Shown piece after piece: positions 2,730 to 17,560 of a DNA stretch of 17,560 nucleotides (positions within the stretch are counted from its first letter, which is position 1; every line of letters starts with the position of its first letter). The stretch comes from Candidatus Omnitrophota bacterium (GTDB taxonomy: Bacteria; Omnitrophota; Gorgyraeia; 2-01-FULL-45-10; JBDRSA01). Under the pieces are notes generated by a model, which was given only the letters and a program-made list of their open reading frames with translations, had not been told where the DNA came from and made no database searches. The stretch lies in NCBI GenBank assembly GCA_043825275.1, contig JBDRSA010000004.1, positions 1 through 17,560 on the forward strand, read 5' to 3'. Both the position numbers and the translations under genes were made by a program.

Positions 2730-3989
2730 TTACTTCCCTTCTTCCGCGCTCCTTTGTTCACAAGCAGTCGAGGCGACCCCTGCTCCGACCAGCACCCAGA
2801 AGAGTCCCGCGATCTCGCTCTGGCTCCAAAAATAGTCGACCAGTCCATGCCCCAGGAATCCTGCCAGTGAACAGAGGATCCCCAGCGTAATATATGTCTG
2901 TCCGAAACCATCTGACGCCCGTATGCCTTTATACAGCTTCCGCATAACAGCTCCGTACAACCACAAGAGCGCGAGCAGCCCGAAAAAACCGAGGTTGACC
3001 GTCGTTTCCAAAAAAATATTGTGCGTCCTGAAACGAGGAACGTTCTTCCAAAAGAACATATCCGCGCCCTGACCGCGAAAAGGGTACTCCTGAATAGATC
3101 GCAGAGCGCTCTTCGCATACTCGAGCCGGATCTTCTCCGTCGGCTCAAGGGTTCCTGTCGTGAACGAGCGAAAACCGAAAAGGTTAAATAAGAACGCTGA
3201 TACTATAATACCACAGAGCAAAAAGAAGAGGGCGATAATTTTCGGCTTTCTGTATTGTACCGCGAATATGGCCACGAAACAGGCAAAGGCGAAGAAGAGC
3301 CCTATGAGCCAGCCTTTCGTCCCCGAAAGAACCGCGCAAAAGATAAATAAAACAGTTAAAGATCCGTAGACGGCTCTCCGAAAAACGCTCGAATGAGGCC
3401 GGAAGATCCAAAAACACGCGGCGAGCGGAACAAGCGCGCCGAAAAATACGCTCATATTCGTCGGCCATCCAAACAGCCCGCAGATCCGGTGAGAACTGAC
3501 CTCGGCGCTTTCGAAGAATCGCCGGAGGCCATCTATCGCGTCATGACGAAAATACTGCGCGGCCACAAATACCGAGGCAATGCAGGCGCCGGCAAAAACA
3601 CAGGAGATCAGCCGCTCAAGCCGGCGTTCACTTGTTATAAAATTAATTATCGCGAAGGCGACGATGCCGAGGCCAAAGAACCGCGCCGTGTATTTCAACG
3701 ACCAGATCATCTTTTCTGACGGTATGACGCTTGAAAAAAGATGGATCCCTAAAAAAACGATGAAGGGATAAACGAGACCTCCCCCGTTCGGGACGTTCTC
3801 CCTGTTCGACAATATCGCGATCTCCCACAATATGATGAGAATGACGACCTCAAGCGCGAAAAAACTCTTTATCGCGGGAATCGTTAATCCGAGATTCTCC
3901 AGGGAAAAATCAAACGGAAGGAATAGAGCTATGCAGCAGCAGCAGTAAAAGACGGCGCGCCGAACGAACAAGGATAGTTTCATGGGCAA
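2730..3989 (-). CDS. O-antigen ligase / Wzy-like polytopic membrane protein (419 aa)
   Basis: Many hydrophobic segments. Large-loop region with LEYAKSALRSIQEYPFRGQGADMF and RTHNIFLETTVNLGFFGLLALLWLY, typical of the WaaL/Wzy_C superfamily (R..H.x motif, HN.xLE). Start could be the second Met at 3983. Confidence 0.8.
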   Translation of the reverse strand: MPMKLSLFVRRAVFYCCCCIALFLPFDFSLENLGLTIPAIKSFFALEVVILIILWEIAILSNRENVPNGGGLVYPFIVFLGIHLFSSVIPSEKMIWSLKYTARFFGLGIVAFAIINFITSERRLERLISCVFAGACIASVFVAAQYFRHDAIDGLRRFFESAEVSSHRICGLFGWPTNMSVFFGALVPLAACFWIFRPHSSVFRRAVYGSLTVLFIFCAVLSGTKGWLIGLFFAFACFVAIFAVQYRKPKIIALFFLLCGIIVSAFLFNLFGFRSFTTGTLEPTEKIRLEYAKSALRSIQEYPFRGQGADMFFWKNVPRFRTHNIFLETTVNLGFFGLLALLWLYGAVMRKLYKGIRASDGFGQTYITLGILCSLAGFLGHGLVDYFWSQSEIAGLFWVLVGAGVASTACEQRSAEEGK

Positions 3990-4124: not shown

Positions 4125-5111
4125 TCACTTAACTTCTGACTGTACGCCATCAGAACTCACAAAGCAGATCCTGTTCCTTCCCGTCTCCTTCGCGTAGTAC
4201 AGGCACTCATCGGCTTTCGCGACCAACGACCTCGGGTCTTTCGAGTCATCCGGATAGGACGAGAGGCCGATGCTGATGGTAAGATGGGCGGTCGTGAGAG
4301 CTTTCTTATCGATGAATTTTGAATTCGCCACGAGCATCCGCAGGCGCTTCGCCACAATAATGGCCTTTGCCTTATCCGTCTCCGGCAGCAGCGTCACAAA
4401 CTCCTCACCGCCGTACCTGAAAACGTGGTCGGTGAACCGGACGCTTCCTGAAAGGATCTGCGCGACCTTTTTCAGGGCCCAATCACCCGCCTGGTGCCCC
4501 TGAGAATCATTAAAATTCTTGAAATGGTCGACATCGATCATCATGCACGAAAGAGGCTTCATGTATTTTGCCGCCCGCATCAGCTCATCGGGAAGCATCG
4601 CGTCAAAATGCCTCCGATTGTAGATCTCGGTCAACCCGTCAAGGATCGACAGCCGCTGATACTGCTCCTTCTCTTTCGCCTCCTTCAAGAGGAGCTGGCG
4701 CTCAACCGCCCTGCGCACGACGACCTTGATCTCCTCAATGTTGAACGGCTTTGAGATATAGTCGTACGCGCCCTCTTTCAGGACCTCCATAGCGGATTGT
4801 ATTGACGCGTAGCCGGTTATGACAATGACGCAGACATCCGCCTTCGCGCTTCTGAATTTTTTTGTGACCTCTACGCCGTCAATACCCGGCATTCTCATGT
4901 CCGTTATCACAATGCTGAAATCGCTGTTGTTGACGAGCCTCACCGCCTCTTCGCCGCTTGACGCCGTACACACCTGGTAGCCGGATTCGGTCAAGACATC
5001 CTTCAGCATGCTGCGCATAATGTCTTCATCGTCTACCACCAGAATGCTAACCGCGGCCATCGCGTTCGCGACGGCGTCTCTCGATCTCTTAACGTTCTCC
5101 CGCTCAGCCAT
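4125..5111 (-). CDS. Response regulator receiver - GGDEF diguanylate cyclase (328 aa)
   Basis: Receiver: ILVVDDEDIMR...IVITDMRMPGIDG...VIVITGYAS...GAYDYISKPF. GGDEF domain: LDGLTEIYNRRHFD...MMIDVDHFKNFND..GHQAGD...VFRYGGEEF. An RxxD (RFTD) I-site sits exactly five residues before GGEEF. Confidence 0.95.
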   Translation of the reverse strand: MAERENVKRSRDAVANAMAAVSILVVDDEDIMRSMLKDVLTESGYQVCTASSGEEAVRLVNNSDFSIVITDMRMPGIDGVEVTKKFRSAKADVCVIVITGYASIQSAMEVLKEGAYDYISKPFNIEEIKVVVRRAVERQLLLKEAKEKEQYQRLSILDGLTEIYNRRHFDAMLPDELMRAAKYMKPLSCMMIDVDHFKNFNDSQGHQAGDWALKKVAQILSGSVRFTDHVFRYGGEEFVTLLPETDKAKAIIVAKRLRMLVANSKFIDKKALTTAHLTISIGLSSYPDDSKDPRSLVAKADECLYYAKETGRNRICFVSSDGVQSEVK

Positions 5112-5134: not shown

Positions 5135-6898
5135 TTATTTTTTAGGCTCTTTGGATTTCACTATCGGGAAGCTCAGTATAAAAGTGGTTCCTTTCCCCTC
5201 TTCACTCTCCGCGGCAACCGTCCCTCGGTGGGCCTGAACGATCGTATGGGTTATTGAAAGCCCGAGGCCTGTTCCGGATCTTCCTACCTTGCTCGTAAAA
5301 AAAGGATCGAAGATATTTGCCAGGTTCTCCTTCGAGATCCCGCTGCCGGAATCCGAAACACGGACCTCCACATACTCAAGCGGAGGCCTGTATCTCGTAT
5401 CGCTCTTGTTCAGAGCGGTCACCTTGATCACGCCGTTCTCGCCCATAGCGTCCTGAGCGTTCTGAATAAGATTCGTGAACACCTGCTGCAGCTGATTCGC
5501 GTTCCCGTTGATCTTCCTGAGGCCTTCCGGAGAGAACGCGGCCGATACTTTCATGTTCTTCTGTGAGAGCTGGAACTCCATCATGCTGACGGTATTCTCA
5601 ATAACGTCCTGGATATTTATCTCTTCCATCTCTTCGGACGATTTCCGCGAAAAATTCAGCAGGTTCGATATGATCCACTGACAGCGCTTCGATTCCTTCT
5701 CAACCATCTCAAGGTATCTGATCGACGTATCAATGACATCCTGTGAGGGGGTAGAGGATTTAAGCCTGGATAATATCAGCTGCACGTACCCGAGGATCCC
5801 GCCGATAGGATTGTTCAGCTCGTGGGCGACGCCGGCGCTGAGCTGGCCGAGCGAGGCCATTTTCGAGGATTGGACGACCTGGTTATACGTCTGCCGCAGT
5901 TCATCCATCTGATCCTTGGCCTTCCCACGGTCGACCTGTTTATATTCGATCAACCGGTCCTCTTTCACCCTAAGCTCATCGGTTACCCGGAGGTGCGCGG
6001 CCTTCAAGGCGATCAGGCCGGTTATACTCTGAATGAGGCGGATCGCCCCTTTCAACAGCATCTCATCTCTTTTCGCGGCCGCCCCGATGACGCCGAAGAA
6101 TGCCCCCCGGTACTCAATGGGCACCAGAATAACCCCCCGGGACCCCTGCTGAAAAAATATCTTTTCTACTTCTTCAAATTTCTTCCCCCCCAAAAGACTC
6201 TTCTTAAAAACGGCTTCCTTCAATCGTATCTCGCGTATCGACGTCCCCTCTTCGTCAAGAGGGATATCTCTTCTTTCGGCCAGGCCTTCGGGGAAGAGCG
6301 GGTAAATGGTCGCCTTCTTCTTATCGCCGCTTATCAGTAGAAGAGCCGCGGAGTCTATATATTGGATCGATCGAAGGCCGTTCCTGGCTGCCTCGAGCAG
6401 ATCGCTCGTCGTTACCCCTGACGAGAGGATCTCCTGGAATTTTTGAAGGAATGAATTGCTTTGGCTGAAACTGCCGAGCGAAGATATCATCTGAGAACAG
6501 GCATGATCGATGTAGGCGATCTCGCCTTTCTCTTCTTCTATATGGCCTTCGCCGCAATACCCTTTTACTTTCTTTACCAGAACGGTCATCGGAGACAGGA
6601 TCCTGTCAAACAACGGAAAAGTAATGAGACAGACCGCCCCCAGGCTTAAAACCGCTACGAGCGCGGAAGAAAATATTACGGTGGTAAACTCCTTGCTCGC
6701 GAAAATACTGACAAGCAGCCCCGCCTCAATAAACAGAACGACCAGAACCACTCCAATAACAAAGATTTTTATGATTTTATCTTTCAAGAACGGCCATCTT
6801 TCTTTTTTCTTGAGGCTTTTAATGAAATATAGCACCACTCTTTGTGCTTTGTCAAGTTTAAATTCCTCTGTCGAAATTCCTCTGTCGGTTATTGACAC
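5135..6898 (-). CDS. GAF-containing sensor histidine kinase (587 aa as called; true start may be downstream, e.g. GTG near 6838)
   Basis: Two closely spaced TMs, a GAF-like region, H-box SLGQLSAGVAHELNNPIGGILGY, N-box NLIQNAQDAM, G1 VSDSGSGI, F-box IFDPFFTSK and G2 GTGLGLSI. Confidence 0.95.
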   Translation of the reverse strand: MSITDRGISTEEFKLDKAQRVVLYFIKSLKKKERWPFLKDKIIKIFVIGVVLVVLFIEAGLLVSIFASKEFTTVIFSSALVAVLSLGAVCLITFPLFDRILSPMTVLVKKVKGYCGEGHIEEEKGEIAYIDHACSQMISSLGSFSQSNSFLQKFQEILSSGVTTSDLLEAARNGLRSIQYIDSAALLLISGDKKKATIYPLFPEGLAERRDIPLDEEGTSIREIRLKEAVFKKSLLGGKKFEEVEKIFFQQGSRGVILVPIEYRGAFFGVIGAAAKRDEMLLKGAIRLIQSITGLIALKAAHLRVTDELRVKEDRLIEYKQVDRGKAKDQMDELRQTYNQVVQSSKMASLGQLSAGVAHELNNPIGGILGYVQLILSRLKSSTPSQDVIDTSIRYLEMVEKESKRCQWIISNLLNFSRKSSEEMEEINIQDVIENTVSMMEFQLSQKNMKVSAAFSPEGLRKINGNANQLQQVFTNLIQNAQDAMGENGVIKVTALNKSDTRYRPPLEYVEVRVSDSGSGISKENLANIFDPFFTSKVGRSGTGLGLSITHTIVQAHRGTVAAESEEGKGTTFILSFPIVKSKEPKK

Positions 6899-6920
6899 TA
6901 AGGCGATTTAGTGCTATATT
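6892..6920 (+). promoter_or_regulatory. Predicted sigma70-type promoter for the motor operon
   Basis: TTGACA (6892-6897), 17-bp spacer, TATATT (6915-6920). This gives a start ~40 nt before the ATG at 6969. Confidence 0.6.
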
Positions 6921-6959: not shown

Positions 6960-7673
6960 TTGGCTCTTATGCATACTTCACATAGTACCATCCGGCGGAG
7001 CGGGAAGATATTATTGACAACTCTCTTCGCTCTTCTCGCGCTCTTTTTTTCCGCTTCCGAATCCTCCGCCCGGGATCCGATGCGGTCAGGTTCCCGAGAG
7101 GCCGAGGCCTACGACGATGGCATCTTCCGGGAAAACAGAGGCTACCTTGTCAGTAACGAGAATATCCCCGAGGAGCGCTCAAAATCAACCCTCTTCAGAC
7201 GCGGAGCGTTCAATAGGACTGAGACGTCTCGTCAGCGAAAGAAGAGAGCTCCGATAACAAAAATATCGTACGGGCAAAAAAAATCCCGGGAGATCTCTAA
7301 ACCGTCTCAACAGGAGTCTTCGTACATTCGTACTCTTGAAGACGCTCTCCTGCAGGAACGAGAGCGCTCGCTGCGCCAAACGAAAGAGATCGAGACGCTC
7401 AGGAGTAAACTGGAACGGGCTCTCAGGCAGCTGTCGCTGGCGACCCAGAAGATAATGGACCTCAAACAGGAGCGCCCCGCGTCTTCAAAGAGAATTTCAC
7501 AGACCTACCAGGTCAAAGCGGGCGATTCTCTCTGGTCGATCGCCGCGATGAAAGAGATCTACGGCAATCCGAAGAAGTGGCTTCTTCTCTATCACGCCAA
7601 CAGGGATCAGATCTATGATCCGAACCTTATCTTCCCGAACATGGTACTCTTGATCCCGCGTCTCAACGATTAA
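6960..7673 (+). CDS. Exported coiled-coil protein with C-terminal LysM domain (TTG at 6960 or ATG at 6969)
   Basis: Signal peptide-like ILLTTLFALLALFFSASESSA. Coiled-coil YIRTLEDALLQERERSLRQTKEIETLRSKLERALRQL. LysM: YQVKAGDSLWSIAAMKEIYGNPKKWLLLYHANRDQIYDPNLIFPNMVLLIPR. Confidence 0.85.
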   Translation: MALMHTSHSTIRRSGKILLTTLFALLALFFSASESSARDPMRSGSREAEAYDDGIFRENRGYLVSNENIPEERSKSTLFRRGAFNRTETSRQRKKRAPITKISYGQKKSREISKPSQQESSYIRTLEDALLQERERSLRQTKEIETLRSKLERALRQLSLATQKIMDLKQERPASSKRISQTYQVKAGDSLWSIAAMKEIYGNPKKWLLLYHANRDQIYDPNLIFPNMVLLIPRLND

Positions 7674-7683
7674 GGAAATATCT

Positions 7684-9726
7684 GTGGGGACCGACAACTA
7701 CACTACGGTTGGACGCTTGAAAACAACGCGCAAACTGTTTTACAGTACTCTGCCGCTGAAGGCGGCCTTCTCTGTATTGGTATGTTCGCTGGCGATCCTG
7801 CCGCCTGCCGCGGCTGCTCAGAGACGGGCCGACGAAGCGATATTGGAAAGTGACATGGCGACCCGCCTCGAATCGATGGTAGAAAAAGTCGTCGGAAAGG
7901 AGCGCTCGATCGTAAAGGTAAAGGTCACCCTTTCGCGCCCCCAGGCTGAAGCTCCTCTCGGCAGCTTAAGAGGGAAGCTGGGCGACATGCCCGGTGTCGC
8001 GTTCTCGAAGGCGGAGCCCAAAAAAGAAGAGACGGTAAAACTCTCGGTCGGCCCCACGATCGAAAAGATCGCGATCACGATCTTTCTCGACAACAAGATC
8101 GCCTCCGATAAGATCGACAGCATAAAAGAATCCATTCCCCGGTGGATGGATCTCGATTTCGAACGCGGCGATACGCTGAAGATCGAGCTGAAGCCGTGGA
8201 AAGAGCTTCCGCCGGAAGATATCGCGATAAAACAGCTGTCGTTCCTGAAAGGAAATCTTTTGGCGATCGTCGCCATCGCCAGTATCGTCATCCTGGTCTT
8301 CGTCCTTATGGCCGTACTTGCCGTACCGGCCAGGAAAATGATCAAACAGCGGTTGAAGATGCCGTCCGACGAGAAAAAGCTCAAGGATCTCGCCAAGGTG
8401 ATGGGTGACCTGAAAAACGTTATCATTAAATCGACCGCCGGCGCGGCGAAGAACGTCGATACCCTTCTTGAGGATATCAAAGGGATCCTCGCGAGAGCCC
8501 CCTCGAGAAGCGACGGCCTGCTTGAAGAAATACGGGATGTGCTTGAAAATATCGCCACAAAATCGATGAAGGGGGGCGAGGGAGGCTCCGGCGGGGCCGG
8601 CGGCTCGGCCGGATCCGCCGCCGGTTTACAGGCGCCCGAGTTCCTCCAGGCACTCAGGGATACGCTCGCGCCGATGGGCGGCGACGGAGGGTTATCCCCC
8701 GAGGCGCTCCAGGTGCTCCAGAGCATCGAGGAGCACATCAAAAGACAGGTTGACGGCGTTGCCGCGGGCGACATTCTTGACGAGCCGTTCAAATATCTCA
8801 ACTCTATCTCGACCGGTGAGATCTCCCTGTATATCGACGGCGAGGAGCCGAGGATCGCCGCCATAATACTGGGACATATCGACCCGAACAAAGCGGCGGA
8901 AGTCGTAGCTGAGCTATCCGACGAAAGAAAGATAGAGGTTTCGGTCGCCATGGCAACCCTTGTCGAGACCGATAAAGTCGCCGCCGAAATAAAGGACTTT
9001 ATCCGCCGCAAAATGCCCGAAGTCAAGCTGAGAAGCGACTTTCAGCCTATTACGGGAAGCAAGGCGCTCGCGGAGCTTTTGAGCTCTTCAACGCTTGATA
9101 TTACGAATTATGTCCTCGACAATCTCCAGAAGAGTAACCCCTCGATCGCGGAAGCGGTAAAGAAGGAGATGTTCCTCTTTGAGGATATCGCGGGCCTGCA
9201 GAATGAAGGCGTCGCGGAGCTGTTAAAAAGCACCGACCGGCATCGTCTTAGTCTTGCCCTTCTGAAGGCGTCGGACGCGGTTAAGACCAAATTTTTTAAC
9301 AACATGACCGAGCGCGCCGTCGCGATGGTCAAGGAGGAGATGAGCGCCCTGCAGCCCGTATCCGATGAGGGTTTGAAAGACGAAATTCTGTTTTTTGAGG
9401 ATATCGTAAATCTCGGCCAGAAGAGATTTCAGCAGATCTTTTCGAATATCGACCGAAATATGATAAAGCTCGCGCTCAAAGGGTCGTCCGAAGAAGTCCG
9501 TACTAGGGTCTTCGCGGTCATGACCGAGCGCGGAGCGGCAATGCTGCGGGAAGATATCGAGGTTATGCCGAACATCGCGCGGGAACGCACGCTCGAGGCG
9601 CAAAAAGAGATACTGGATTACGTGCGTAAACTGGAGATGGAACCTATTGTCGCTCAACAGGAGATCATCGCCAAGGTCAGAGAGCTCGAACGCGCCGGAA
9701 GGCTCTCGCTCGGATCGCGGTCCTGA
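7684..9726 (+). CDS. Truncated FliF (C-terminal RBM3-like + TM) fused to FliG middle/C-terminal domains (680 aa)
   Basis: GTG start with an upstream AGGAAA. FliF-like: RLESMVEKVVGKERSIVKVKVTLS...VKLSVGPTIEKIAITIFLDNK...IPRWMDLDFERGDTLKIELKPW, followed by a TM. FliG-like: DGEEPRIAAIILGHIDPNKAAEVVAELSDERK (cf. EHPQTIA.ILS.LDP..AAEVL), MFLFEDIAGL..., LALKGSSEEVRTRVFAVMTERGAAMLREDIEVM and EAQKEILDYVRKLE. Confidence 0.85.
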   Translation: MGTDNYTTVGRLKTTRKLFYSTLPLKAAFSVLVCSLAILPPAAAAQRRADEAILESDMATRLESMVEKVVGKERSIVKVKVTLSRPQAEAPLGSLRGKLGDMPGVAFSKAEPKKEETVKLSVGPTIEKIAITIFLDNKIASDKIDSIKESIPRWMDLDFERGDTLKIELKPWKELPPEDIAIKQLSFLKGNLLAIVAIASIVILVFVLMAVLAVPARKMIKQRLKMPSDEKKLKDLAKVMGDLKNVIIKSTAGAAKNVDTLLEDIKGILARAPSRSDGLLEEIRDVLENIATKSMKGGEGGSGGAGGSAGSAAGLQAPEFLQALRDTLAPMGGDGGLSPEALQVLQSIEEHIKRQVDGVAAGDILDEPFKYLNSISTGEISLYIDGEEPRIAAIILGHIDPNKAAEVVAELSDERKIEVSVAMATLVETDKVAAEIKDFIRRKMPEVKLRSDFQPITGSKALAELLSSSTLDITNYVLDNLQKSNPSIAEAVKKEMFLFEDIAGLQNEGVAELLKSTDRHRLSLALLKASDAVKTKFFNNMTERAVAMVKEEMSALQPVSDEGLKDEILFFEDIVNLGQKRFQQIFSNIDRNMIKLALKGSSEEVRTRVFAVMTERGAAMLREDIEVMPNIARERTLEAQKEILDYVRKLEMEPIVAQQEIIAKVRELERAGRLSLGSRS

Positions 9727-9785: not shown

Positions 9786-9980
9786 ATGATCATCGTTACA
9801 AAGTTTGACGGCAAGGAACTGGTAGTGAACGCCGACCTTGTAAAGTTCGTCGAAGCGAAACCTGACACTATCATGACGCTCACCACCGGTGAAAGGATCA
9901 TCGTAAAAGAACCCCGCGATGAAGTTATCAGCCGGATCATTAAGTATAAGCAGTTGGTACATCAACCCCCCGTCCAATAG
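9786..9980 (+). CDS. flbD: FlbD/SwrD family protein (64 aa from the second Met of ORF 9741..9980)
   Basis: MIIVTKFDGKELVVNADLVKFVEAKPDTIMTLTTGERIIVKEPRDEVISRIIKYKQLV matches the FlbD pattern (I.VTRLNGK...LN.DLIE.IE..PDT.ITL..G.K..VKE....VI..I..Y). AAAGGA lies just upstream of the ATG. Confidence 0.88.
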   Translation: MIIVTKFDGKELVVNADLVKFVEAKPDTIMTLTTGERIIVKEPRDEVISRIIKYKQLVHQPPVQ

Positions 9981-9995
9981 AACAGAGAGGCGACC

Positions 9996-10751
9996 ATGGC
10001 GATAACAACTATAACCGGGCTTCTCCTGGCGGCGTTCTTTCTTCTTTTCGGTATCGCGACACGCGGCGGTATGTCCCGGATCATGGTCTTCGTCGATCCG
10101 GGATCTCTTATGCTGGTTGTCGGCGCCAGTATTTCGGCGCTCATCACGAACTATACGTTTAAAGAGATATGGCTGGCCATGAAAGCTATCCGTTTCGCCT
10201 TTCTGCCGAAACCCCCGATGCCTGAAGCGGTTATCGATCTGATCGTGCGCATGGCCATCAAAGCGCGCAAAGAAGGGTTCATTTCACTGCGGGAAGAGTC
10301 ATCCGGCGAAAAATTTCACCTGGTCGACCTGGGTGTCGGCCTCATCGCCGACGGGACCGATCCCGAGGTGACCCGGGAGATCCTCGACGCCGCGAGCTTC
10401 ACCGAGGGCGGCATGCTCGCTTCAAACGAGCGTGTCTGGAGGGACCTGTCGGTTTATACTCCCATGTTCGGTATGGTCGGAACGCTGATCGGCCTTATCC
10501 TGATGCTGCGGGGTTTGTCCGACCCCGCGACCATCGGCCCGGCAATGGCCATGGCGCTCATAACAACGCTCTACGGCATCGTTATCGCGGGTGTGCTTTG
10601 TCTTCCGATCGCCGGAAAGATCAAAAATTATAACGATCGGGTAGCGGTCCTGAGAACGCTTATGATCGAGGGCCTCATCTCCATCCAGGCGGGTGACAAC
10701 TCCCAGATCGTTGAGGCGCGCCTCAAGGCTCATATCGCCAAAGAATCCTAA
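9996..10751 (+). CDS. motA: MotA-family stator protein (251 aa)
   Basis: Four hydrophobic segments; VDPGSLMLVVGASISALI, YTPMFGMVGTLIGLILML..LSDPATIGPAMAMALITTLYGIVIAGVLCLPIAGKI and MIIEG-like MIEGLISIQAGDNSQIVEARL are diagnostic of MotA. GAGAGG is upstream. Confidence 0.95.
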   Translation: MAITTITGLLLAAFFLLFGIATRGGMSRIMVFVDPGSLMLVVGASISALITNYTFKEIWLAMKAIRFAFLPKPPMPEAVIDLIVRMAIKARKEGFISLREESSGEKFHLVDLGVGLIADGTDPEVTREILDAASFTEGGMLASNERVWRDLSVYTPMFGMVGTLIGLILMLRGLSDPATIGPAMAMALITTLYGIVIAGVLCLPIAGKIKNYNDRVAVLRTLMIEGLISIQAGDNSQIVEARLKAHIAKES

Positions 10752-10758
10752 TAAAAGA

Positions 10759-11553
10759 ATGCCCGTTCACAGCCTCTATAAAAAAAAGAAAGCTTTCCCT
10801 TCGGTCTCCGGAGAAAGCGAGCTTGAAGACAGCTGGCCGCCTACCTGGTCCGTCAGCTTTGCCGACCTGACGACGCTGCTAATGTCGGGGTTCATCCTCT
10901 GGTACGCTCTTACCGCGATGAAGATCCCGCCGGAACTTCTCGCGATCAAAGAGATCGATCAGGTTATTCCCGCCGATATCAAGATCATGGAAAACTTCGA
11001 ACAGGCGGGCGCCGATCAATCAAGGATCATGCTCAAGATCAAGGCCCTCACCCCCAAACAGCGCAGGCTTGTCAGAGAGATGAAGGCCCTGAGGGAGCTC
11101 AAAGAGACGATCGAGCGCCAGATAACCCAGGCCGGCCTTGACGACAAAGTAGACGTTCGGGTAGAGATCGACGCGGTGCTCATAACGCCGCGTGAGCCTT
11201 TTCTCTTCGGGGAGGGGGACGCCCGGCTCAAACAGAGCTCGTTCGCGCTGCTTGACACAATTATCGAAACGATACGGTCACGGTCATACTACCGGATACG
11301 CGTCGAGGGCCATACCGACAGCGCGCCGATCGGCCCTTTCCGCAAGATCCTGTTCCCCACGAATTGGGAGCTTTCCTACAAACGGGCGATAACGGTAGCT
11401 CAATATCTTATTGCCGGAAATATATCGCCCGCGGCCATCGGGGTGACCGGATACAGCGATACAAAACCGAAGGTTGTGGGCGATGACCCGGAAAGCAGAG
11501 AGAAGAACAGAAGGGTCGACATTTATATTTATCTCAAGAAGGTCGAAAGGTAG
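10759..11553 (+). CDS. motB: MotB-family stator protein, copy 1 (264 aa from internal Met; the ORF track starts at 10693)
   Basis: WPPTWSVSFADLTTLLMSGFILWYAL with the conserved TM Asp (D36). OmpA/peptidoglycan-binding region: RVEGHTDSAPI....NWELSYKRAITVAQYL...GVTGYSDTKP....REKNRRVDIYI. The ATG at 10759 is 7 nt after the motA stop. Confidence 0.93.
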   Translation: MPVHSLYKKKKAFPSVSGESELEDSWPPTWSVSFADLTTLLMSGFILWYALTAMKIPPELLAIKEIDQVIPADIKIMENFEQAGADQSRIMLKIKALTPKQRRLVREMKALRELKETIERQITQAGLDDKVDVRVEIDAVLITPREPFLFGEGDARLKQSSFALLDTIIETIRSRSYYRIRVEGHTDSAPIGPFRKILFPTNWELSYKRAITVAQYLIAGNISPAAIGVTGYSDTKPKVVGDDPESREKNRRVDIYIYLKKVER

Positions 11554-11565
11554 CGTCCTCAAGCC

Positions 11566-12318
11566 ATGATCGAATCAAGAATTCAACGGCGCGATCAAGC
11601 GACATCAACGCTTCAGGAGGTTTGGCCGCCGAAGTGGTTCTTTTCGTATTCGGACCTGTCGGTGCTCCTGATGACCTTCTTTATCATTCTCGCCACGATG
11701 CTTTCCCTGAAGATCCCGCTCTACGTGTTTGCCGACGCGAGATTAAAACCGCTCCTGGATGAACGGATGGTCGTCTTTGAAGAGATCAGGCGGCTCACGG
11801 AACTCGAGAAGATGATGATGGATGAATTTCAATCAATGCGGCCCGATCAGGTCAAGCGCCTCATCGCGCTCGAGAAGATGAATGAGTTGAAAAAAAGTAT
11901 CGATAAGTACATCAAGAAGATGCAGCTGGAAAATTTTATCAAGATCGAAGCCGGAAAGTGGAAGCTCCGGCTGGTGCCCTTGTCTCCCTTGCTGTTCGGC
12001 CGCGGCGACGCCGTTCTGCGTCAGGAAGCGAAAGATTTTCTCGATCAGATAGCGGAATTCGCCGCAATGTACCCGTCGCGCCTTTCGATCGAGGGGCACA
12101 CGGACGACACCCCTATCAACACCCGTCAATTCTCCTCAAACTGGGAACTTTCCGCGGCCCGCGCGAACAGCATTATGCGCTATCTGGCCACCGAACACAA
12201 GATCCCCTCTGATAAGATCGACGCGGTCGGATACGGGGAATACCGGCCGCTCGTCCCCAACGACTCGGATACAAACCGCGCCTCCAACCGCCGGGTCGTT
12301 ATCGAACTGCTTATTTGA
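11566..12318 (+). CDS. MotB-family stator protein, copy 2 (250 aa)
   Basis: WPPKWFFSYSDLSVLLMTFFIIL with the conserved TM Asp (D30). SIEGHTDDTPINTRQFSSNWELSAARANSIMRYL...DAVGYGEYRPLVPNDSDTNRASNRRVVIELL is an OmpA-like peptidoglycan-binding domain. Confidence 0.93.
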   Translation: MIESRIQRRDQATSTLQEVWPPKWFFSYSDLSVLLMTFFIILATMLSLKIPLYVFADARLKPLLDERMVVFEEIRRLTELEKMMMDEFQSMRPDQVKRLIALEKMNELKKSIDKYIKKMQLENFIKIEAGKWKLRLVPLSPLLFGRGDAVLRQEAKDFLDQIAEFAAMYPSRLSIEGHTDDTPINTRQFSSNWELSAARANSIMRYLATEHKIPSDKIDAVGYGEYRPLVPNDSDTNRASNRRVVIELLI

Positions 12319-12352
12319 ACAGTCGTAGAGCTTTTACATGCCACGACTGTTC
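12317..12352. terminator. Inverted repeat at the end of the motor operon
   Basis: gaacagtcgt (12317-12326) pairs with acgactgttc (12343-12352), 16-nt loop. It overlaps the stop of the second motB copy and has no clear T-tract. Confidence 0.35.
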
Positions 12353-12388
12353 ATCCTGAGCGAAGCGAACGATCTCATTCCATAACTT

Positions 12389-12409
12389 CCTCTCCCCGGA
12401 GGGGAGAGG
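12389..12409. repeat. GC-rich perfect hairpin in the convergent intergenic region, likely dispersed intergenic repeat or terminator
   Basis: cctctcccc gga ggggagagg. It lies next to CATCCTGAGCGAAGCGAACGATCTC, a string resembling common bacterial intergenic repeats. Confidence 0.45.
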
Positions 12410-12467
12410 ATTGAGGTGAGGGGTACCCTTGAATGCTTGTACATTGCTACCGGCTTCGGTATCCCGG

Positions 12468-12761
12468 TCAAAACTTCATCTGGGATCTCACCCTCGTAGG
12501 ACTGCCGTCTTCTGACGAGTGATACTTTATCTGAGGATTCATCCAATACCTAAGATAGCGGGTAATAGTCTTTCCTCCGACAATATACCCGCAAAGAGCC
12601 GCCATTATCACAATAAAAACCTTGAGCAGTATCGTGGCTCTAAATCGGCTCTTCCTTGCTATCTTCTCTTTTATCTTTATTTTAATACGGTTTTGCGAAC
12701 GGCCAAACGTATTCCCGCCCGGAGCTTTTTCCGTATTCTCATCATGTCTGAAATTATCCAT
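12468..12761 (-). CDS. Small single-TM protein (98 aa from internal Met of ORF 12468..12872)
   Basis: MDNFRHDENTEKAPGGNTFGRSQNRIKIKIKEKIARKSRFRATILLKVFIVIMAALCGYIVGGKTITRYL... Basic segment then one hydrophobic helix. It is co-directional with and just downstream of the 12838..14316 gene. Confidence 0.4.
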   Translation of the reverse strand: MDNFRHDENTEKAPGGNTFGRSQNRIKIKIKEKIARKSRFRATILLKVFIVIMAALCGYIVGGKTITRYLRYWMNPQIKYHSSEDGSPTRVRSQMKF

Positions 12762-12837
12762 GTACTTTTCCGTTATCTTTTGCCATGAACGATCTTTGTT
12801 CCCGTCAATTATCCGGCTTCCGCTGTATCTCCGGCCT

Positions 12838-14316
12838 CTACTCAACGGTAAAAGTACCGACCACCCAGTCACCGTATTTTTCGTAGTTTACATACGGCTG
12901 TTTGAACGTATCGCTTGGATAAGTCGGCTGGTCGATTTGATAAACCCCGTCCTTTCCTCTGTAGTATCTTACATAGCTTGCTCCCTCCTGAGTCTTTTGT
13001 TCAATAAAAAGACCTGCTTCAATATCATAAATGCCGGGGGGCGTATCATCAGGTATGTACACTCGCTTCGGCCCCTGGGTAATAATCTCACCAACCTTCC
13101 ATTCCGTCGCTTGAGGAATCAGTGAAGAATCGGCATTAATATAGCCGGCCTTATCGTTCTGTCGATAAATATGCATGAATAACGCGTAATTTTTCTTAAA
13201 CTTTCTTGATATTGAAAAAGATAACTCTATATCGATCGTTCCACCGGGTCGTACACTGTTTTGAGAAAGTTTTGTCCCTTCGAAAGTAACAAAAGGGCCC
13301 GTCTCATTGCCCAGATTGAAAGAGACAAGCCAAACATCATCGAGATATATTGTCGCCTGAGCGCCGCCGCGATAAAAATTAAAATCGTCTATATCGCCAA
13401 GGTCGATCTTCTCGCCGACAGCCGATAAATTAATAACATACGGCTTATCTTTCTCCGTTGTACCGGGTATTCCAACCGTAAATCTTCGTCCCGTTCTGTC
13501 TTTGATCTGCAAGGTAAGGGGAGTATTTGAATACGTGTGGCCATCCTTCTCCGGTCCATAGACGTAAAAACGCAATTCATCATAGAGTAACCAATCGTGG
13601 TATTTCGGATTACTATATCTAAAAAAATTGTTGAGTCGAACCGTAGGCATGCCGCCTTCGTTGAATGTTATTTTGGCCGCCTGCTTCCCTTGAGCAACAT
13701 TCTCTTTTTCCTGCTCAATAACGGCGCCGGATAGCTCCCATTTCCTTACATCGACCAGATCTTCAAAATCACTTATTACAAGATCTTCGATCTTCTTTTC
13801 CTCATTCTCATCTGCCGGCTCGACCACACGCAACGTCCCGACAATAAAATCTTTTATATCCGCGTTGGTATACGGCTCCCTGATATAGATCGGTCCCGCA
13901 GATGTCTGTTTCGTCGAATAGAGCCCCATCCTTACACCATACTCTCCCGCCGGTATGTCAGAAGGAATAAAAACATTGACCGGACCTACGGAAACCGCGT
14001 CACCAACTACCCACATCGTTGTAGGCGTCGCGGGCGAAAAATCATTATTGATAACGATCGCGTGCGTCTTGAGATCTACAATATGCAGATAAAACCCGTA
14101 ATCTTCCCAAATATTCTTGGTGATCGAAAAATCAGCGTTCAAGAAGAAGATCTCCCCTTTTTGGACCTTATCGGGAATATCGAGCGTCCCTAAAGTTATG
14201 ATCGCCTTTCCTTCCCGGACAATAGATTTCGCTTGAACGGTAAAAGAAAAGATGGTGCCAATTAAAAGAATAGGTATAGATACCCGCCGAATATGATAAA
14301 ACAGCATCTTTTTCAT
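12838..14316 (-). CDS. Secreted multi-domain protein with two Wzt-C-like beta-sandwich modules flanking a CBM-like module (492 aa)
   Basis: Signal peptide VSIPILLIGTIFSFTVQA. Modules FYLHIVDLKTHAIVINNDF...VSVGPVNVFIPSDIPAGEYGVRMGLYS...IKDFIVGTLRV and YALFMHIYRQNDKAGYINAD...ITQGPKRVYIPDDTPPGIYDIEAGLF...DWVVGTFTV. Middle: VISDFEDLVDVRKWELSG...YLDDVWL. Confidence 0.7.
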   Translation of the reverse strand: MKKMLFYHIRRVSIPILLIGTIFSFTVQAKSIVREGKAIITLGTLDIPDKVQKGEIFFLNADFSITKNIWEDYGFYLHIVDLKTHAIVINNDFSPATPTTMWVVGDAVSVGPVNVFIPSDIPAGEYGVRMGLYSTKQTSAGPIYIREPYTNADIKDFIVGTLRVVEPADENEEKKIEDLVISDFEDLVDVRKWELSGAVIEQEKENVAQGKQAAKITFNEGGMPTVRLNNFFRYSNPKYHDWLLYDELRFYVYGPEKDGHTYSNTPLTLQIKDRTGRRFTVGIPGTTEKDKPYVINLSAVGEKIDLGDIDDFNFYRGGAQATIYLDDVWLVSFNLGNETGPFVTFEGTKLSQNSVRPGGTIDIELSFSISRKFKKNYALFMHIYRQNDKAGYINADSSLIPQATEWKVGEIITQGPKRVYIPDDTPPGIYDIEAGLFIEQKTQEGASYVRYYRGKDGVYQIDQPTYPSDTFKQPYVNYEKYGDWVVGTFTVE

Positions 14317-14407
14317 TGTTATCTTTCTCCTTTTTTAAAATACTAAAAATACATATATCAGACAGAGGGTCTATCTTTTTGTCAGCCAGTTTTCGACGCA
14401 AATGGCT

Positions 14408-15499
14408 TTACTTCACTACTTCAATATATCCGACTATATGATCTTTAAAAGCTTGGCTTGCGTACCGCAAGCGGGGATAGCCGGTACGAAAATCAAAGGC
14501 TCCACTGTTGAGCGCGCCTCTTGAATACGATCCTCTTGATCGGGGATTAAATAGCCCGATCTGCACCGCATAGGCGCCCGGTTGAAAATCTTTCGGAATA
14601 AAGATCCTTTCCGGGCCAATTTCATATATGCCGCTTTCGGCCCACTGAGAAGTAGGGACTAATGGATCTCTGTCCGCGTTGATAAACCATCGCCGTTTTG
14701 ATGACTTTTTTTTCAATTCATTTGATTTTGAAATATGAATAAACGCTTTATACTTTTTGTCCAGCGCTTTTAAGGCCACCATACTGCAGGAAAGTAAAAT
14801 TTCCGTGCCGCGTCGAACAGTATCCGGAGCGCGCAACGAAACAAAGTCTACCATAGGATCTTCCAGGATATCTCTCTTTGCAAGATCTTCCCTATCAAGC
14901 CTTACATTGTCCAAATAAAACTCGCGATCTTCGTTTTGGGGACCGGTAAAGAGTTTAAGATAGACGATATTCGTTAGATCAACTGTATCAGCAATATCTT
15001 TGAGATCGATCCGAATATTATTTTTCCCACTTTGCATCTTTATTTTCTGCTGCGCATATCGGCCGGCTTTATCCTTTATTTTTATGTCAAGGAGTACAGG
15101 GGCATCCTGCGGGTTCCATAGCTCAAACCGTAAAGATTTAAAACGAGACCAATCTTTTTCCCCGCGAGGACCTATATTAGTGTCTTCAAGCCCTACTCCT
15201 GGAGTAGCGCTCCCTCCATGTTCTTTACTGTATAGAGTTACATGGGCGGAGTGTTTTCCAGATGACGCGTACCGGGAAGAAAGCTCAACAAAGCTTCCGT
15301 CAAGATCCCACGCCCAAAAATCCTTCGACCCCTCAAAATCACTAAGAACTTTTTCGTGAGGCGTATAAAAATAATTGACTGCCGGTTTTGTATAATTAAT
15401 AAACGTGTTAATAACTCCCGTTCTTTTTATGGAAAACCCGATCAATAAGAGCCATCCGAGGATAACACTAAATATAACTAAAAAATAATTTTTTTTCAA
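14408..15499 (-). CDS. Membrane-anchored protein with a CBM-like module and a Wzt-C-like module (363 aa)
   Basis: N-terminal TM NYFLVIFSVILGWLLLIGFSI. VLSDFEGSKDFWAWDLDGSFVELSSRYASSGKHSAHVTLY...FYLDNVRL, then YKAFIHISKSN...WFINAD...YEIGPERIFIPKDFQPGAYAVQIGLF...KDHIVGYIEV. Confidence 0.7.
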   Translation of the reverse strand: MKKNYFLVIFSVILGWLLLIGFSIKRTGVINTFINYTKPAVNYFYTPHEKVLSDFEGSKDFWAWDLDGSFVELSSRYASSGKHSAHVTLYSKEHGGSATPGVGLEDTNIGPRGEKDWSRFKSLRFELWNPQDAPVLLDIKIKDKAGRYAQQKIKMQSGKNNIRIDLKDIADTVDLTNIVYLKLFTGPQNEDREFYLDNVRLDREDLAKRDILEDPMVDFVSLRAPDTVRRGTEILLSCSMVALKALDKKYKAFIHISKSNELKKKSSKRRWFINADRDPLVPTSQWAESGIYEIGPERIFIPKDFQPGAYAVQIGLFNPRSRGSYSRGALNSGAFDFRTGYPRLRYASQAFKDHIVGYIEVVK

Positions 15500-15532
15500 A
15501 ATATAGCCTGCCGTTCGAATGCCGAGAAATAT

Positions 15533-17560
15533 TCACTTCGCCAATTCCTCTATCAACCTTCCGATCCTCTCTCTTTCTTCAAAAACCCGCTTATTGTCTC
15601 TCGTATAGTAGATTGAGGTTTTGACAATAGCGTTATTTACGCGCAACGCGTCTTCGGCCTCAGATAAACCAGCATGATAATCGCTCGAAAAGCCGTTCTT
15701 TTTTATTAAGTTTACCGTATCGTTTAACAGATAAAAGTACTCGTAATCCTCGAGGCCATCCCGAAGGACCTCGAGCCGGATAGAGCCGACCGGGTTCTCT
15801 CCTTCCGGATCCGGATAATACAACGACCCGTTTCCGTTCTGCTCTGAAAAGGTCATAGCGCTCTTCCACGGATCGGTTTTGCTCCAATAGTTTACACACC
15901 AATAGAGCAACCCTTTGGCGCCGTACTTCCAGCATATCCATGGGATGATCCGGTGCTCGATCGCGGGAACATCCAGATTGAGGTTCGGGCATGGCCTCGT
16001 CGTTCCGGCAACATACATCCAGATATCCTTGCCGGATCTTTGAAATTCGGAAACGGCGGGCTGGACCAATTCATCAACTCTTACACACCATATATCAACA
16101 TCGGGATATCCTTTCCGCGGCGCCATAGTAACAAGATTCTTTATTCCCGGATTACCCTCATGAATAAGCCGGGTAAAATCTTTGACCCGATGAAGGGTTT
16201 CATCGAATATATACGCGTAGGAGATGTTGAGCCAGCCTTTTTCTTCCAGGTGCTTTCCGTATTCTCCAAAGACGCCTACCACAGCGTTTTGATCGGTATA
16301 TCCGTACCACTTATCCGTCCACTCTCCCCGGTATCCCCAGGGCCATTCCTGGGCAATGCCGAAACAGGCTTGGCCGTTTTCAAGATAGAACGCCGCCTCT
16401 TTGTCGAATTTGTCAAACGCCAGATGATATTTCCCATCCTCTTCACCTAAGAACTTCGGATTGCCTACATTGTGTATCGGGCTGATGCGGTGCTTGAGCA
16501 TATCAAGATAATAGCTCTCAAGCAGCCTTTGGACCCGAAGTTTCCAAAATACGCCATCTTCATGCTGTTTCCGCGGATGACTTGATTTGATATGATGGGC
16601 ATAAAAGTCAAAAGCGGTTTTCAGGTTCGCTCTTTTGGGAATAGAGAAACCCCAAACGTGAAGCGTTACATCTACGCTTTTTGCCTTTTTCCCCGATGGA
16701 TGTATGATCACCGTACTCTTATATTTCCCGGGTAGAGTTTCCTTTGGGACATACACCGTGGCCCAGACCGGTTGAACAGTCTCTTTTGGGACATCAAAAG
16801 GCTCCTTGAGCGGGATCAGAGGATCGGGCCATAATCCGACTTTAACGGTATTGTAGTATGGTTTTTCTGTTTTGACATAGCCCACTTTATATAACGTTAC
16901 ATTCTCTTTTCCGATCCCGCGGCCATTCTTCTCAAAAAAATCATCTTCCAACAAAACCTCTACGTTTTGCAGATCATCCTCTCCGGGAACAACCACGATC
17001 TGAAAGCTCTCGTATTCTCCCCTTGCCGCGTAAATAGTTACGCTATCTCGATCGCTCGTATAGTCCAAATAAGCTCTCTCCTGAAATATCTTCTTGAGGG
17101 AATCAGCGGCCATTACTCCATAACCGTATTCATCTGCAAATATAACCGGTTCAGGAGACCTCTTTTTTATCGAGATCGCGCCGACCGCCCAATCATGAAT
17201 ATCCTGATTGCTGTAAGGTAACTTTTTATAGTATGCCCCGGTCGCTGTTCTCGTTTGGGAGGAAAGCCCCATAGTCACCCTATATTCTCCCTCGGGAAGA
17301 TCAAGCGGAACGTATATATAGAACGGTCCCAGATCTATCCTTTTATTGGGCTCCCAAAGCTTCTGTGGTCCCAAAGCATGGATATCAGCGTTTACATACG
17401 CCCCCGGCCAGGTTCCTTCAAGGTGTAAAAAAAGAAAATGTTCTTTCGGAAGTCGTTCCGTGATCTCCAAGCCGCATGAAATCGCAACCATATCCCCCGT
17501 AAACAGCTCAGCGGGAGATATATCAATGTTCAAAAGGTTCACCTGTTCTTCGCCATATGA
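15533..17560 (-). CDS. Wzt-C-like module plus DUF4091 / GH123-like glycoside-hydrolase-type protein; 5' end probably beyond the window
   Basis: HFLFLHLEGTWPGAYVNAD...IDLGPFYIYVPLDLPEGEYRVTMGLS, then YAARGEYESFQIVVVPG, PLIPLKEPFDVPKETVQPVWATVYVPKETLPGKYK, YAYIFDET, GLLYWCVNYW, GSIRLEVLRDGLEDYEYFYLL. A GTG at 17542 is possible, but the frame is open to 17560 and no signal peptide is present. Confidence 0.82.
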   Translation of the reverse strand, partial: SYGEEQVNLLNIDISPAELFTGDMVAISCGLEITERLPKEHFLFLHLEGTWPGAYVNADIHALGPQKLWEPNKRIDLGPFYIYVPLDLPEGEYRVTMGLSSQTRTATGAYYKKLPYSNQDIHDWAVGAISIKKRSPEPVIFADEYGYGVMAADSLKKIFQERAYLDYTSDRDSVTIYAARGEYESFQIVVVPGEDDLQNVEVLLEDDFFEKNGRGIGKENVTLYKVGYVKTEKPYYNTVKVGLWPDPLIPLKEPFDVPKETVQPVWATVYVPKETLPGKYKSTVIIHPSGKKAKSVDVTLHVWGFSIPKRANLKTAFDFYAHHIKSSHPRKQHEDGVFWKLRVQRLLESYYLDMLKHRISPIHNVGNPKFLGEEDGKYHLAFDKFDKEAAFYLENGQACFGIAQEWPWGYRGEWTDKWYGYTDQNAVVGVFGEYGKHLEEKGWLNISYAYIFDETLHRVKDFTRLIHEGNPGIKNLVTMAPRKGYPDVDIWCVRVDELVQPAVSEFQRSGKDIWMYVAGTTRPCPNLNLDVPAIEHRIIPWICWKYGAKGLLYWCVNYWSKTDPWKSAMTFSEQNGNGSLYYPDPEGENPVGSIRLEVLRDGLEDYEYFYLLNDTVNLIKKNGFSSDYHAGLSEAEDALRVNNAIVKTSIYYTRDNKRVFEERERIGRLIEELAK

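Follow-up and report, generated by a model that had tools for sequence, protein, structure and literature searches.

An RBM3-FliG fusion protein encoded in a conserved rotor-stator operon of Omnitrophota with no other flagellar gene found nearby

The 17,560-nt stretch of DNA analyzed here (the window) comes from Candidatus Omnitrophota and carries on its forward strand a gene in which a truncated FliF is joined to FliG in a single polypeptide of 680 amino acids (aa). This fusion gene belongs to a conserved rotor-stator operon, near which no other flagellar gene was found, and the operon is part of a widespread RBM3-FliG/stator family that is apparently undescribed. The fusion is co-transcribed with genes for FlbD, a PomA-like MotA and two MotB proteins, and the operon is headed by the gene of a secreted coiled-coil LysM protein. 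We consider it reasonably probable, at roughly 0.6, that the 680-aa protein serves as a one-piece rotor subunit in a rotary machine that is driven by MotAB and is not a flagellum. The fuller proposal, to which we give somewhat less than an even chance, is that of a self-contained, non-flagellar engine in which a minimal MS/C-ring would be driven by a stator of flagellar type for the handling of exopolysaccharides or adhesins, and which would represent a new class of envelope machine, found in metagenome-assembled genomes (MAGs) carrying three phylum-level labels (Omnitrophota/PVC, Bacteroidota and Gemmatimonadetes).

Results

Organization of the fusion protein

The fusion had been proposed in an earlier note made from the nucleotide sequence, and the open reading frame (ORF) proved to be real, with a GTG start codon and the following parts.

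7684..9726, + strand: RBM3-transmembrane (TM)-FliG fusion gene, 680 aa, GTG start
7735..7821, + strand: N-terminal signal-like hydrophobic helix, residues 18-46, ending in AAA/Q (hydropathy)
7834..8217, + strand: FliF RBM3-like ring-building domain, residues 51-178 (hhalign, Foldseek, profile matches and model topology)
8242..8325, + strand: TM helix, residues 187-214 (hydropathy; continuous helix in the AlphaFold model)
8326..8778, + strand: cytoplasmic linker, residues 215-365, helical in part and containing a Gly-rich stretch (low predicted local distance difference test, pLDDT; conserved LEDIK...LL.EIRD segments)
8779..9024, + strand: FliG middle domain, residues 366-447 (PF14841; alignment to Thermotoga maritima FliG)
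9055..9363, + strand: FliG C-terminal domain, copy 1, residues 458-560, with ARM_C, the MFLFED hinge and torque helix 1 (MTERAVAMVKEEM) (PF01706; alignment to 1lkv)
9379..9639, + strand: second torque subdomain, residues 566-652, with the LFFEDI hinge and torque helix 2 (MTERGAAMLREDIEVMPNIARER) (phmmer to 1qc7_A)
9640..9726, + strand: additional C-terminal helix, residues 653-680, similar to the last helix of FliG and followed by the stop codon (weak alignment)

The order of domains is thus a signal-like helix, RBM3, a TM helix, a linker of about 150 aa, FliG_M, and a FliG_C with a duplicated torque subdomain. An AAGGA motif resembling a Shine-Dalgarno sequence lies 8 nt upstream of the GTG at 7684. 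The start chosen by NCBI is 11 codons past this GTG, and the N-terminal hydrophobic helix is retained with either start; a database entry 100% identical to the fusion is 669 aa long and is named only 'FliG C-terminal domain-containing protein'. Hydropathy analysis detected two hydrophobic segments, at about residues 21-45 and 187-214, the second of which is the TM segment predicted to follow RBM3. The N-terminal helices of all orthologues end in AxA-like motifs in the alignment, which suggests that this helix may be a cleaved signal and not the first TM helix of FliF. A lipoprotein signal of the SctJ type was rejected by eye, as no lipobox precedes Cys34. An antisense ORF of 402 aa (7818-9026, - strand) lies wholly within the fusion gene; it is unsupported and most likely arises simply from sense-strand composition.

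The FliF-derived part

The FliF identity of residues 51-178 is confirmed far beyond chance. On the fusion, the Pfam family PF08345 (YscJ_FliF_C) remained under threshold (E 0.027; 15.4 versus 23.8 bits), and a profile search of the PDB with the FliF part gave a marginal match to FliF (9yh6, E 0.58) through the RGD-x-L motif. Because Pfam alone was not convincing for this part, a domain profile (A2) was built from 13 orthologues over residues 46-186, and searched against a library of 1.84 billion representative proteins, which returned 506 matches at E<=1e-3. Canonical FliF proteins are matched at E values between 1e-12 and 1e-6 in two stretches that flank the collar insertion; four of them, confirmed as FliF by Pfam (YscJ_FliF plus YscJ_FliF_C), were matched at E 5e-12 to 8e-9. 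Likewise, alignment of A2 by hhalign to 28 canonical FliFs, which were themselves chosen from the matches of this profile, gave a probability of 99.2% and an E value of 1.2e-19 over 127 columns, placing residues 51-178 of the fusion on residues 240-413 of FliF with a gap of about 47 columns at the FliF beta-collar. The assignment by the earlier note of residues ~50-172 to an RBM3-like segment of FliF is therefore upheld by profile and fold matches, and the three peptides that it quoted were located at residues 66-84, 120-138 and 158-172. Within residues 45-175, support from hidden Markov models for FliF comes from hhalign and the A2 profile, Pfam being sub-threshold; three other members of the family (P0024, P0030 and P0048) do exceed the Pfam cutoff for PF08345.

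The predicted structure agrees with this assignment. The AlphaFold models were built from a 13-sequence alignment and reached pLDDT values of 62-64; that of the RBM3-like domain (pLDDT 62.5, 70-80 in the core) has the topology helix-strand-[42-aa insertion]-strand-helix-strand. When this model was submitted to Foldseek, the best 18 PDB matches were all RBM3 or S-ring chains of FliF (E 1.6e-4 to 2.3e-3, probability 1.00), and SpoIIIAG, with which a comparison had been proposed, was absent from the 50 PDB matches listed. The 42-aa insertion between strands 1 and 2 occupies the place of a beta-collar of about 110 aa, and a full-length, rod-contacting collar is not present. Among the RBM3 motifs are an invariant P103-G104 within a conserved L-x-x-(L/M/I)-P-G and the RGDTL motif. 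As had been noticed before, RBM1 and RBM2 are missing: PF01514 (YscJ_FliF) gave no match to the fusion even at E 10, whereas canonical FliFs scored 216-223 bits in the same search, and only about 5-10 residues separate the signal-like helix from the first helix of RBM3.

The FliG-derived part and its duplicated torque subdomain

The FliG middle and C-terminal regions that were expected after the TM helix are both recognized by Pfam, FliG_M (PF14841) at residues 380-447 with 50 bits (cutoff 25) and FliG_C (PF01706) with 147 bits (cutoff 23.3) over residues 479-560 and again over ~570-652. A phmmer search of the PDB retrieved FliG of T. maritima, Helicobacter pylori and Aquifex for residues 367-567 (E 1e-25 to 1e-22), and the isolated FliG C-domain 1qc7_A matched residues 570-652 (E 1e-12). 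The MFxF hinge occurs twice, as MFLFED at residues 496-501 and as LFFEDI at residues 569-574. Aligned with SKRAAALLKDELE of T. maritima FliG, both torque helices (MTER...KEEM and MTER...REDIE) retain the Arg and the acidic pair equivalent to R281, D288 and D289 of E. coli. In E. coli, R90 and E98 of MotA touch D289 and R281 of FliG (PMC7564593). The sequence EAQQKIINIIRRLEEAGEI at the C terminus of T. maritima FliG aligns a second time, weakly, with the extra C-terminal helix, which is modeled at residues 653-670. A nested duplication is suggested by the two apparent copies of the last FliG helix, at residues 633-651 and 653-670. The duplicated torque subdomain is confined to the window clade (14 proteins), which also has two motB genes, and relatives in which the torque domain is single carry a single motB.

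Other portions of FliG and of its interface with FliF are altered or lacking. No FliG_N was found above the Pfam threshold (22 versus 25 bits), and the sub-threshold match overlaps the FliG_M region. The full-length family TIGR00207 scores 170.7 bits on the fusion against a cutoff of 226.7 and covers profile positions 111-301 only. The C-terminal cytoplasmic tail of FliF, which binds FliG_N, is absent from the fusion; the linker of about 150 aa occupies the place of both this tail and FliG_N, and is covalently joined to FliG_M. The FliM-binding EHPQR motif is degenerate, EHPQ being replaced by EEPR and the equivalent of Arg160 by the Ala of an invariant AM pair. We reasonably infer that the label of minimal MS/C-ring subunit, given to the fusion in the earlier note, may apply to this protein.

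Conservation of the fusion

The same architecture was found in 13 further proteins, 31-70% identical, nearly all of full length and from different samples and sources. In addition, 13 GTDB species genomes, labeled Omnitrophota, 'PVC group' (Planctomycetes-Verrucomicrobia-Chlamydiae) or 'uncultured Planctomycetales', encode the fusion; this genome scan used alignment A1 and hence covers the window clade only. The invariant positions are G71, R74, P103-G104 and R161-G162-D163 in the RBM3 core, residues past the TM helix, and M496-F497-L498-F499 in the hinge. All related loci of sufficient length have the gene order X, fusion, FlbD, MotA, MotB, MotB.

The source being a 17.6-kb metagenome contig, and the FliF part not being called by Pfam, a chimeric assembly of fliF and fliG fragments, or a pseudogenized paralogue, might be suspected, yet we regard either as having a negligible chance. 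Mis-assembly, which the earlier note had wished to see checked, is excluded because the uninterrupted, full-length architecture recurs in the 13 further proteins of independent and varied origin and in the 13 GTDB species genomes. Nor does the locus behave as a decayed paralogue, since functional motifs are invariant or near-invariant across orthologues 31-70% identical. Intact reading frames, strict synteny and at least 84 clusters of more distant fusions point in the same direction.

Operon and stator genes

The other elements of the operon are as follows.

6892..6920, + strand: sigma-70-like promoter, TTGACA, 17-nt spacer, TATATT, with TG (11 of 12 consensus matches; consensus match only)
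6960..7673, + strand: protein X, 237 aa, with signal peptide, coiled coil and C-terminal LysM peptidoglycan-binding domain (Pfam LysM, E 1.6e-6)
9786..9980, + strand: FlbD, 64 aa from ATG, flagellar-motor accessory family (PF06289, E 2e-23; start inferred from translation)
9996..10751, + strand: MotA, 251 aa, PomA-like flagellar-type stator A subunit (PDB matches, residue alignment)
10759..11553, + strand: MotB paralogue 1, 264 aa from Met23 of the listed ORF, with plug, TM Asp (FADL) and OmpA-like domain
11566..12318, + strand: MotB paralogue 2, 250 aa, with plug, TM Asp (YSDL) and OmpA-like domain

The sigma-70-like site ends 40 nt upstream of the first gene, which encodes protein X. Homologues of X occupy the same position in the operon in loci L001-L004, L024 and L010-L021 and have in common the motifs NRGYxxxNP and WLLLYHANRDQI. 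MotA matches PomA over its full length (8brd, E 2e-39) and Aquifex MotA (8gqy, E 2e-39); its score with the NCBIfam PomA model is 183 bits, under the cutoff of 341, and it retains the channel prolines (P151 and P199 equivalents) and the equivalent of Arg88. In both MotB paralogues the OmpA-like domain is above its Pfam cutoff and the ion-binding TM Asp is kept; with the MotB_plug model (Pfam cutoff 24 bits) MotB2 passes at 27.0 bits and MotB1 falls just under at 22.0 bits.

The wider family

Beyond the window clade, the top 160 of the 506 matches of profile A2 comprise 84 fusions of an RBM3-like domain, a TM helix and FliG without RBM1/2, together with 51 canonical FliFs and 25 fragments, so that the wider family amounts to at least 84 clusters at 50% identity. 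These fusions have a single torque domain and are accompanied by one MotA and one MotB; motA-motB lies directly downstream of the fusion in all six distinct contexts with enough flank. In half of these six, motA-motB is followed by the gene of a 1300-1560-aa FG-GAP/CHU_C protein of the type IX secretion system (T9SS) type, and then by that of a TPR or PorP_SprF protein. The loci, from MAGs labeled Bacteroidota or Gemmatimonadetes, are:

L007, 13008-19108: fusion-motA-motB with FG-GAP/CHU_C
L023, 13169-18699: fusion-motA-motB with FG-GAP/CHU_C
L025, 11084-17178: fusion-motA-motB with FG-GAP/CHU_C

The layout of these three loci is reminiscent of the SprB/SprF gliding genes. In one context Wza and Wzc precede the fusion and FlbD is included, and in L006 (1-8090), from a 2.9-Mb assembly, a giant gene encoding 16,931 aa ends 1.9 kb upstream of an RBM3-FliG fusion with motA-motB. 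For the wider family, taxonomic assignment is drawn from two MAG labels, that of a Bacteroidota neighbor protein and that of a Gemmatimonadetes-labeled homologue. One subgroup of fusions (P0167-P0186) has TPR repeats alongside the FliG middle and C-terminal domains. A word-index search with alignment A3 retrieved nothing beyond close relatives of the first sequence in that alignment.

Genomic neighborhood

The GTDB loci were searched with the genes of the module itself, and the other loci are those covered by Pfam annotation of the flanks. In the ±10 kb flanks of these Pfam-annotated loci no flagellar family other than FliG, FlbD, MotA and MotB was found, that is, neither fliM/fliN nor further flagellar genes. 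The flanks carry exopolysaccharide genes, for a priming transferase, exosortase EpsH/EpsI, polysaccharide deacetylases, Wzy, a Wzx-like flippase, Wza/Wzc and glycosyltransferases. The following genes of the window surround the operon.

4125-5111, - strand: response-regulator diguanylate cyclase (GGDEF), divergent from the motor operon (Pfam)
5135-6898, - strand: histidine kinase, divergent from the motor operon (Pfam)
12838..14316, - strand: U492, conserved secreted/membrane protein, 492 aa, with homologues 31-46% identical in L001-L004, L024 and L010-L020
14408..15499, - strand: U363, conserved secreted/membrane protein, 363 aa, with a weak carbohydrate-binding-module signal and homologues in L001-L004 and L010-L020

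The pair formed by the kinase and the GGDEF regulator was found in the window and its closest relative, L003, only; these proteins are possible regulators of the machine and hint at a control by cyclic di-GMP (c-di-GMP). Wherever a related locus extends far enough, U492 and U363 accompany the operon, and they may or may not be members of the machine. U492 belongs to no Pfam or NCBIfam family, and U363, to which no such family was assigned either, gave a sub-threshold match to Agarase_CBM (E 1.6e-4). The two proteins have in common repeated W..G....GP....IP.D..PG.Y....GL modules. At the end of the window, a glycoside hydrolase of the GH123 family (669 aa, 15533-17542, - strand) follows, as it also does after U492/U363 in L003. 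The guanine-cytosine content falls from ~0.53-0.56 in the motor operon to ~0.42-0.46 past motB2 (12300-17560). Further upstream, an ORF of 476 aa without Pfam family (1282-2712, - strand) adjoins a Wzy_C (O-antigen-ligase-like) gene (2730-3989, - strand).

Discussion

The proposed machine

Besides supporting the fusion itself, the present analysis adds to the earlier note the duplication of the torque subdomain, the conserved stator operon with a LysM protein at its head, the polysaccharide context, and a published chlamydial fusion. Based on these features, we hypothesize, by homology to FliF, that the RBM3 domains would assemble in the periplasm into a ring that resembles the S-ring and has a few tens of subunits, the ring of FliF having about 33-35; isolated RBM3 of Salmonella forms rings (PMC8786727). 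The covalent link would set one FliG per subunit beneath the membrane, in a 1:1 FliG ring, which would render FliG_N and the FliF tail dispensable. Peptidoglycan-anchored MotA5MotB2 units, with the help of FlbD, would then turn the ring by pushing on the conserved Arg and the acidic residues in its torque helices. Since the FliM motif is degenerate, fliM and fliN are not found nearby, and the protein has neither RBM1/RBM2 nor a long collar, we propose that the machine would have no switch, export gate or rod, in which case its output would not be a filament. In the most speculative step of this model, rotation would probably drive the movement or extrusion of surface polymers or adhesins, like gliding or Nfs-type machines, because the operon is found within exopolysaccharide/exosortase loci and its relatives stand beside Wza/Wzc or giant T9SS-type proteins.

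Several observations weigh against this proposal. Confidence in the AlphaFold models is modest (pLDDT 62-64), and the fusion falls under the curated cutoffs for FliF_C in Pfam and for FliG in TIGR00207 (171 versus 227 bits). Ring formation and rotation are extrapolated from homology, the polysaccharide link is one of gene neighborhood, and the loci inspected extend over ±10 kb, a range compatible with a full flagellar gene set elsewhere in the genome. The LysM partner is expected to be static and would thus not be a driven periplasmic component. Moreover, MotA of the window clade has Arg or Lys, and Arg in the window itself, at the position of PomA Glu96 (E. coli MotA Glu98), and the classical rotor-stator charge pairing may therefore be changed in this clade. 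An acidic residue follows this Arg/Lys in all the MotAs compared except that of L001, which has Gly, and more distant relatives retain Glu.

Alternative functions

A rotary output is not the only function that may be envisaged for such an assembly. A ring or scaffold bearing FliG could bind MotAB in order to sense load or proton-motive force, or to gate polysaccharide production under the control of c-di-GMP, without mechanical work as its output. The histidine kinase and GGDEF response regulator divergent from the operon in the window and L003 would be in line with such a regulatory assembly, as would the PilZ protein near one relative and the peptidoglycan-binding partner X, which is presumably static. 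In flagellated bacteria, a tie between FliG/stators and exopolysaccharides is provided by the EpsE clutch. Likewise, the YcgR brake links c-di-GMP to FliG and the stators (PMC10140304). Nevertheless, the residues for ion-driven torque (MotB Asp, MotA prolines and FliG torque-helix charges) are all conserved, the two-component genes are missing from the deeper clade, and all the loci examined, which span three phylum-level MAG labels, retain a full stator with FlbD, which would be costly for a sensor. We consequently hold a regulatory or non-rotating role to be unlikely, if worth serious consideration.

An unusual but real flagellum, in which the fusion would be the MS/C-ring protein, the operon would give the rotor and stator, and the other flagellar genes would lie elsewhere in the genome, seems improbable to us. 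Every recognizable domain is flagellar, the order FlbD-MotA-MotB is typical of the flagellar operons of spirochaetes and Firmicutes, and the evidence is that of loci and not of whole genomes. Against this, RBM1/RBM2, which surround the export gate, are absent, the rod-holding collar is shorter by about 47 columns, and the FliM-binding EHPQR is degenerate. Furthermore, no additional flagellar family occurs within ±10 kb in the Pfam-annotated loci, whose context is one of exopolysaccharide and adhesin genes, and two large surveys of Omnitrophota genomes make no mention of flagella, MotA or FliG. A Zorya-like anti-phage system based on a MotAB-type motor was also considered, as the MotB paralogues weakly match ZorB models, and was rejected as very improbable: ZorA is not matched, MotA being short, PomA-like and devoid of the ZorA tail, no ZorC/D-like genes were found, and the ZorB matches correspond to generic MotB/OmpA similarity.

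Comparison with known systems

The nearest published precedent for the fusion, and the sole natural FliF-FliG fusion that we found in the literature, is the stator-less protein of Chlamydiaceae (CT719 type; Bergeron 2016), which has ~330 aa, contains RBM2 plus one RBM and only FliG_M, lacks a torque domain and a MotAB partner, and was proposed to act in the injectisome (PMC4768692). Compared by published description, and not by sequence, the two are alike in being natural single polypeptides in which the periplasmic region of FliF is truncated and joined to a TM helix and a FliG-derived cytoplasmic domain, in hosts thought to be flagellum-less; both lineages are in or near the PVC group. In contrast to the chlamydial protein, that of the window has RBM3 only, FliG_M plus the duplicated torque domain, 680 aa and a full stator operon. 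FliF-FliG fusions that were engineered or arose spontaneously are functional or form rings, and engineered ones of Vibrio and Salmonella are among the ring formers (PMC10941966, PMC11481574).

With the flagellar rotor and stator, the window system has in common the RBM3 fold, RGD-x-L, FliG_M, the ARM_C/MFxF hinge, the torque-helix charges, a PomA-like MotA, the MotB Asp and OmpA domain, and FlbD. It differs in the lack of RBM1/RBM2, FliG_N and the FliF tail, in the short collar and degenerate FliM motif, in an N-terminal helix that is probably a cleaved signal, in the two torque subdomains and two MotBs, and in a locus without nearby genes for FliM/N, export, rod, hook or filament. The stand-alone RBM3-type domain of the sporulation ring protein SpoIIIAG, which also occurs outside a flagellum and has an insertion between its first two strands, is another parallel, although SpoIIIAG has no FliG part and no stator.

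Surface machines driven by relatives of MotAB also include the Nfs/Glt (Agl-Glt) systems of Myxococcus. The GldLM/T9SS gliding machinery of Bacteroidota (PMC8986121) is similar in that an ion-driven motor of the 5:2 type is encoded beside surface-adhesin or polysaccharide-export genes, and relatives of the window protein adjoin CHU_C/T9SS-type giant proteins and PorP_SprF. However, the GldL/ExbB/TolQ-type motors of GldLM and Agl-Glt/Nfs act directly on periplasmic shafts, with no FliG or RBM ring, whereas the stator of the window is of true flagellar type and would face a FliG torque helix.

A full-text literature search retrieved no published description of the module, an absence in that search which is not proof of novelty; a study of MotAB evolution (PMC12505986) mentions FliG once and describes no such fusions.

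Significance

The hosts of this operon are uncultured, possibly host-dependent nanobacteria, in which a flagellar-type motor or motility had not been noted before. If the one-piece rotor proves to be part of a working motor, it would form the smallest known flagellar-type rotor-stator pair, made up of a single rotor gene and a single MotA with one or two MotBs, and would be attractive for structural and single-molecule torque studies. The two torque helices and the two MotB paralogues, both lineage-specific, would provide a natural experiment in rotor-stator matching. A working motor would also hint at an undescribed way of powering the movement of surface polymers or adhesins, given the polysaccharide-export genes and the T9SS-type giants of its relatives. 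The module may be a pre-flagellar relic or a derived spin-off, and a FliF/FliG ring coupled to MotAB without export gate, rod or switch would bear on the evolution of the flagellar motor: if our proposal is correct, a flagellar rotor-stator pair can occur and be favored by selection where there is no type III export apparatus.

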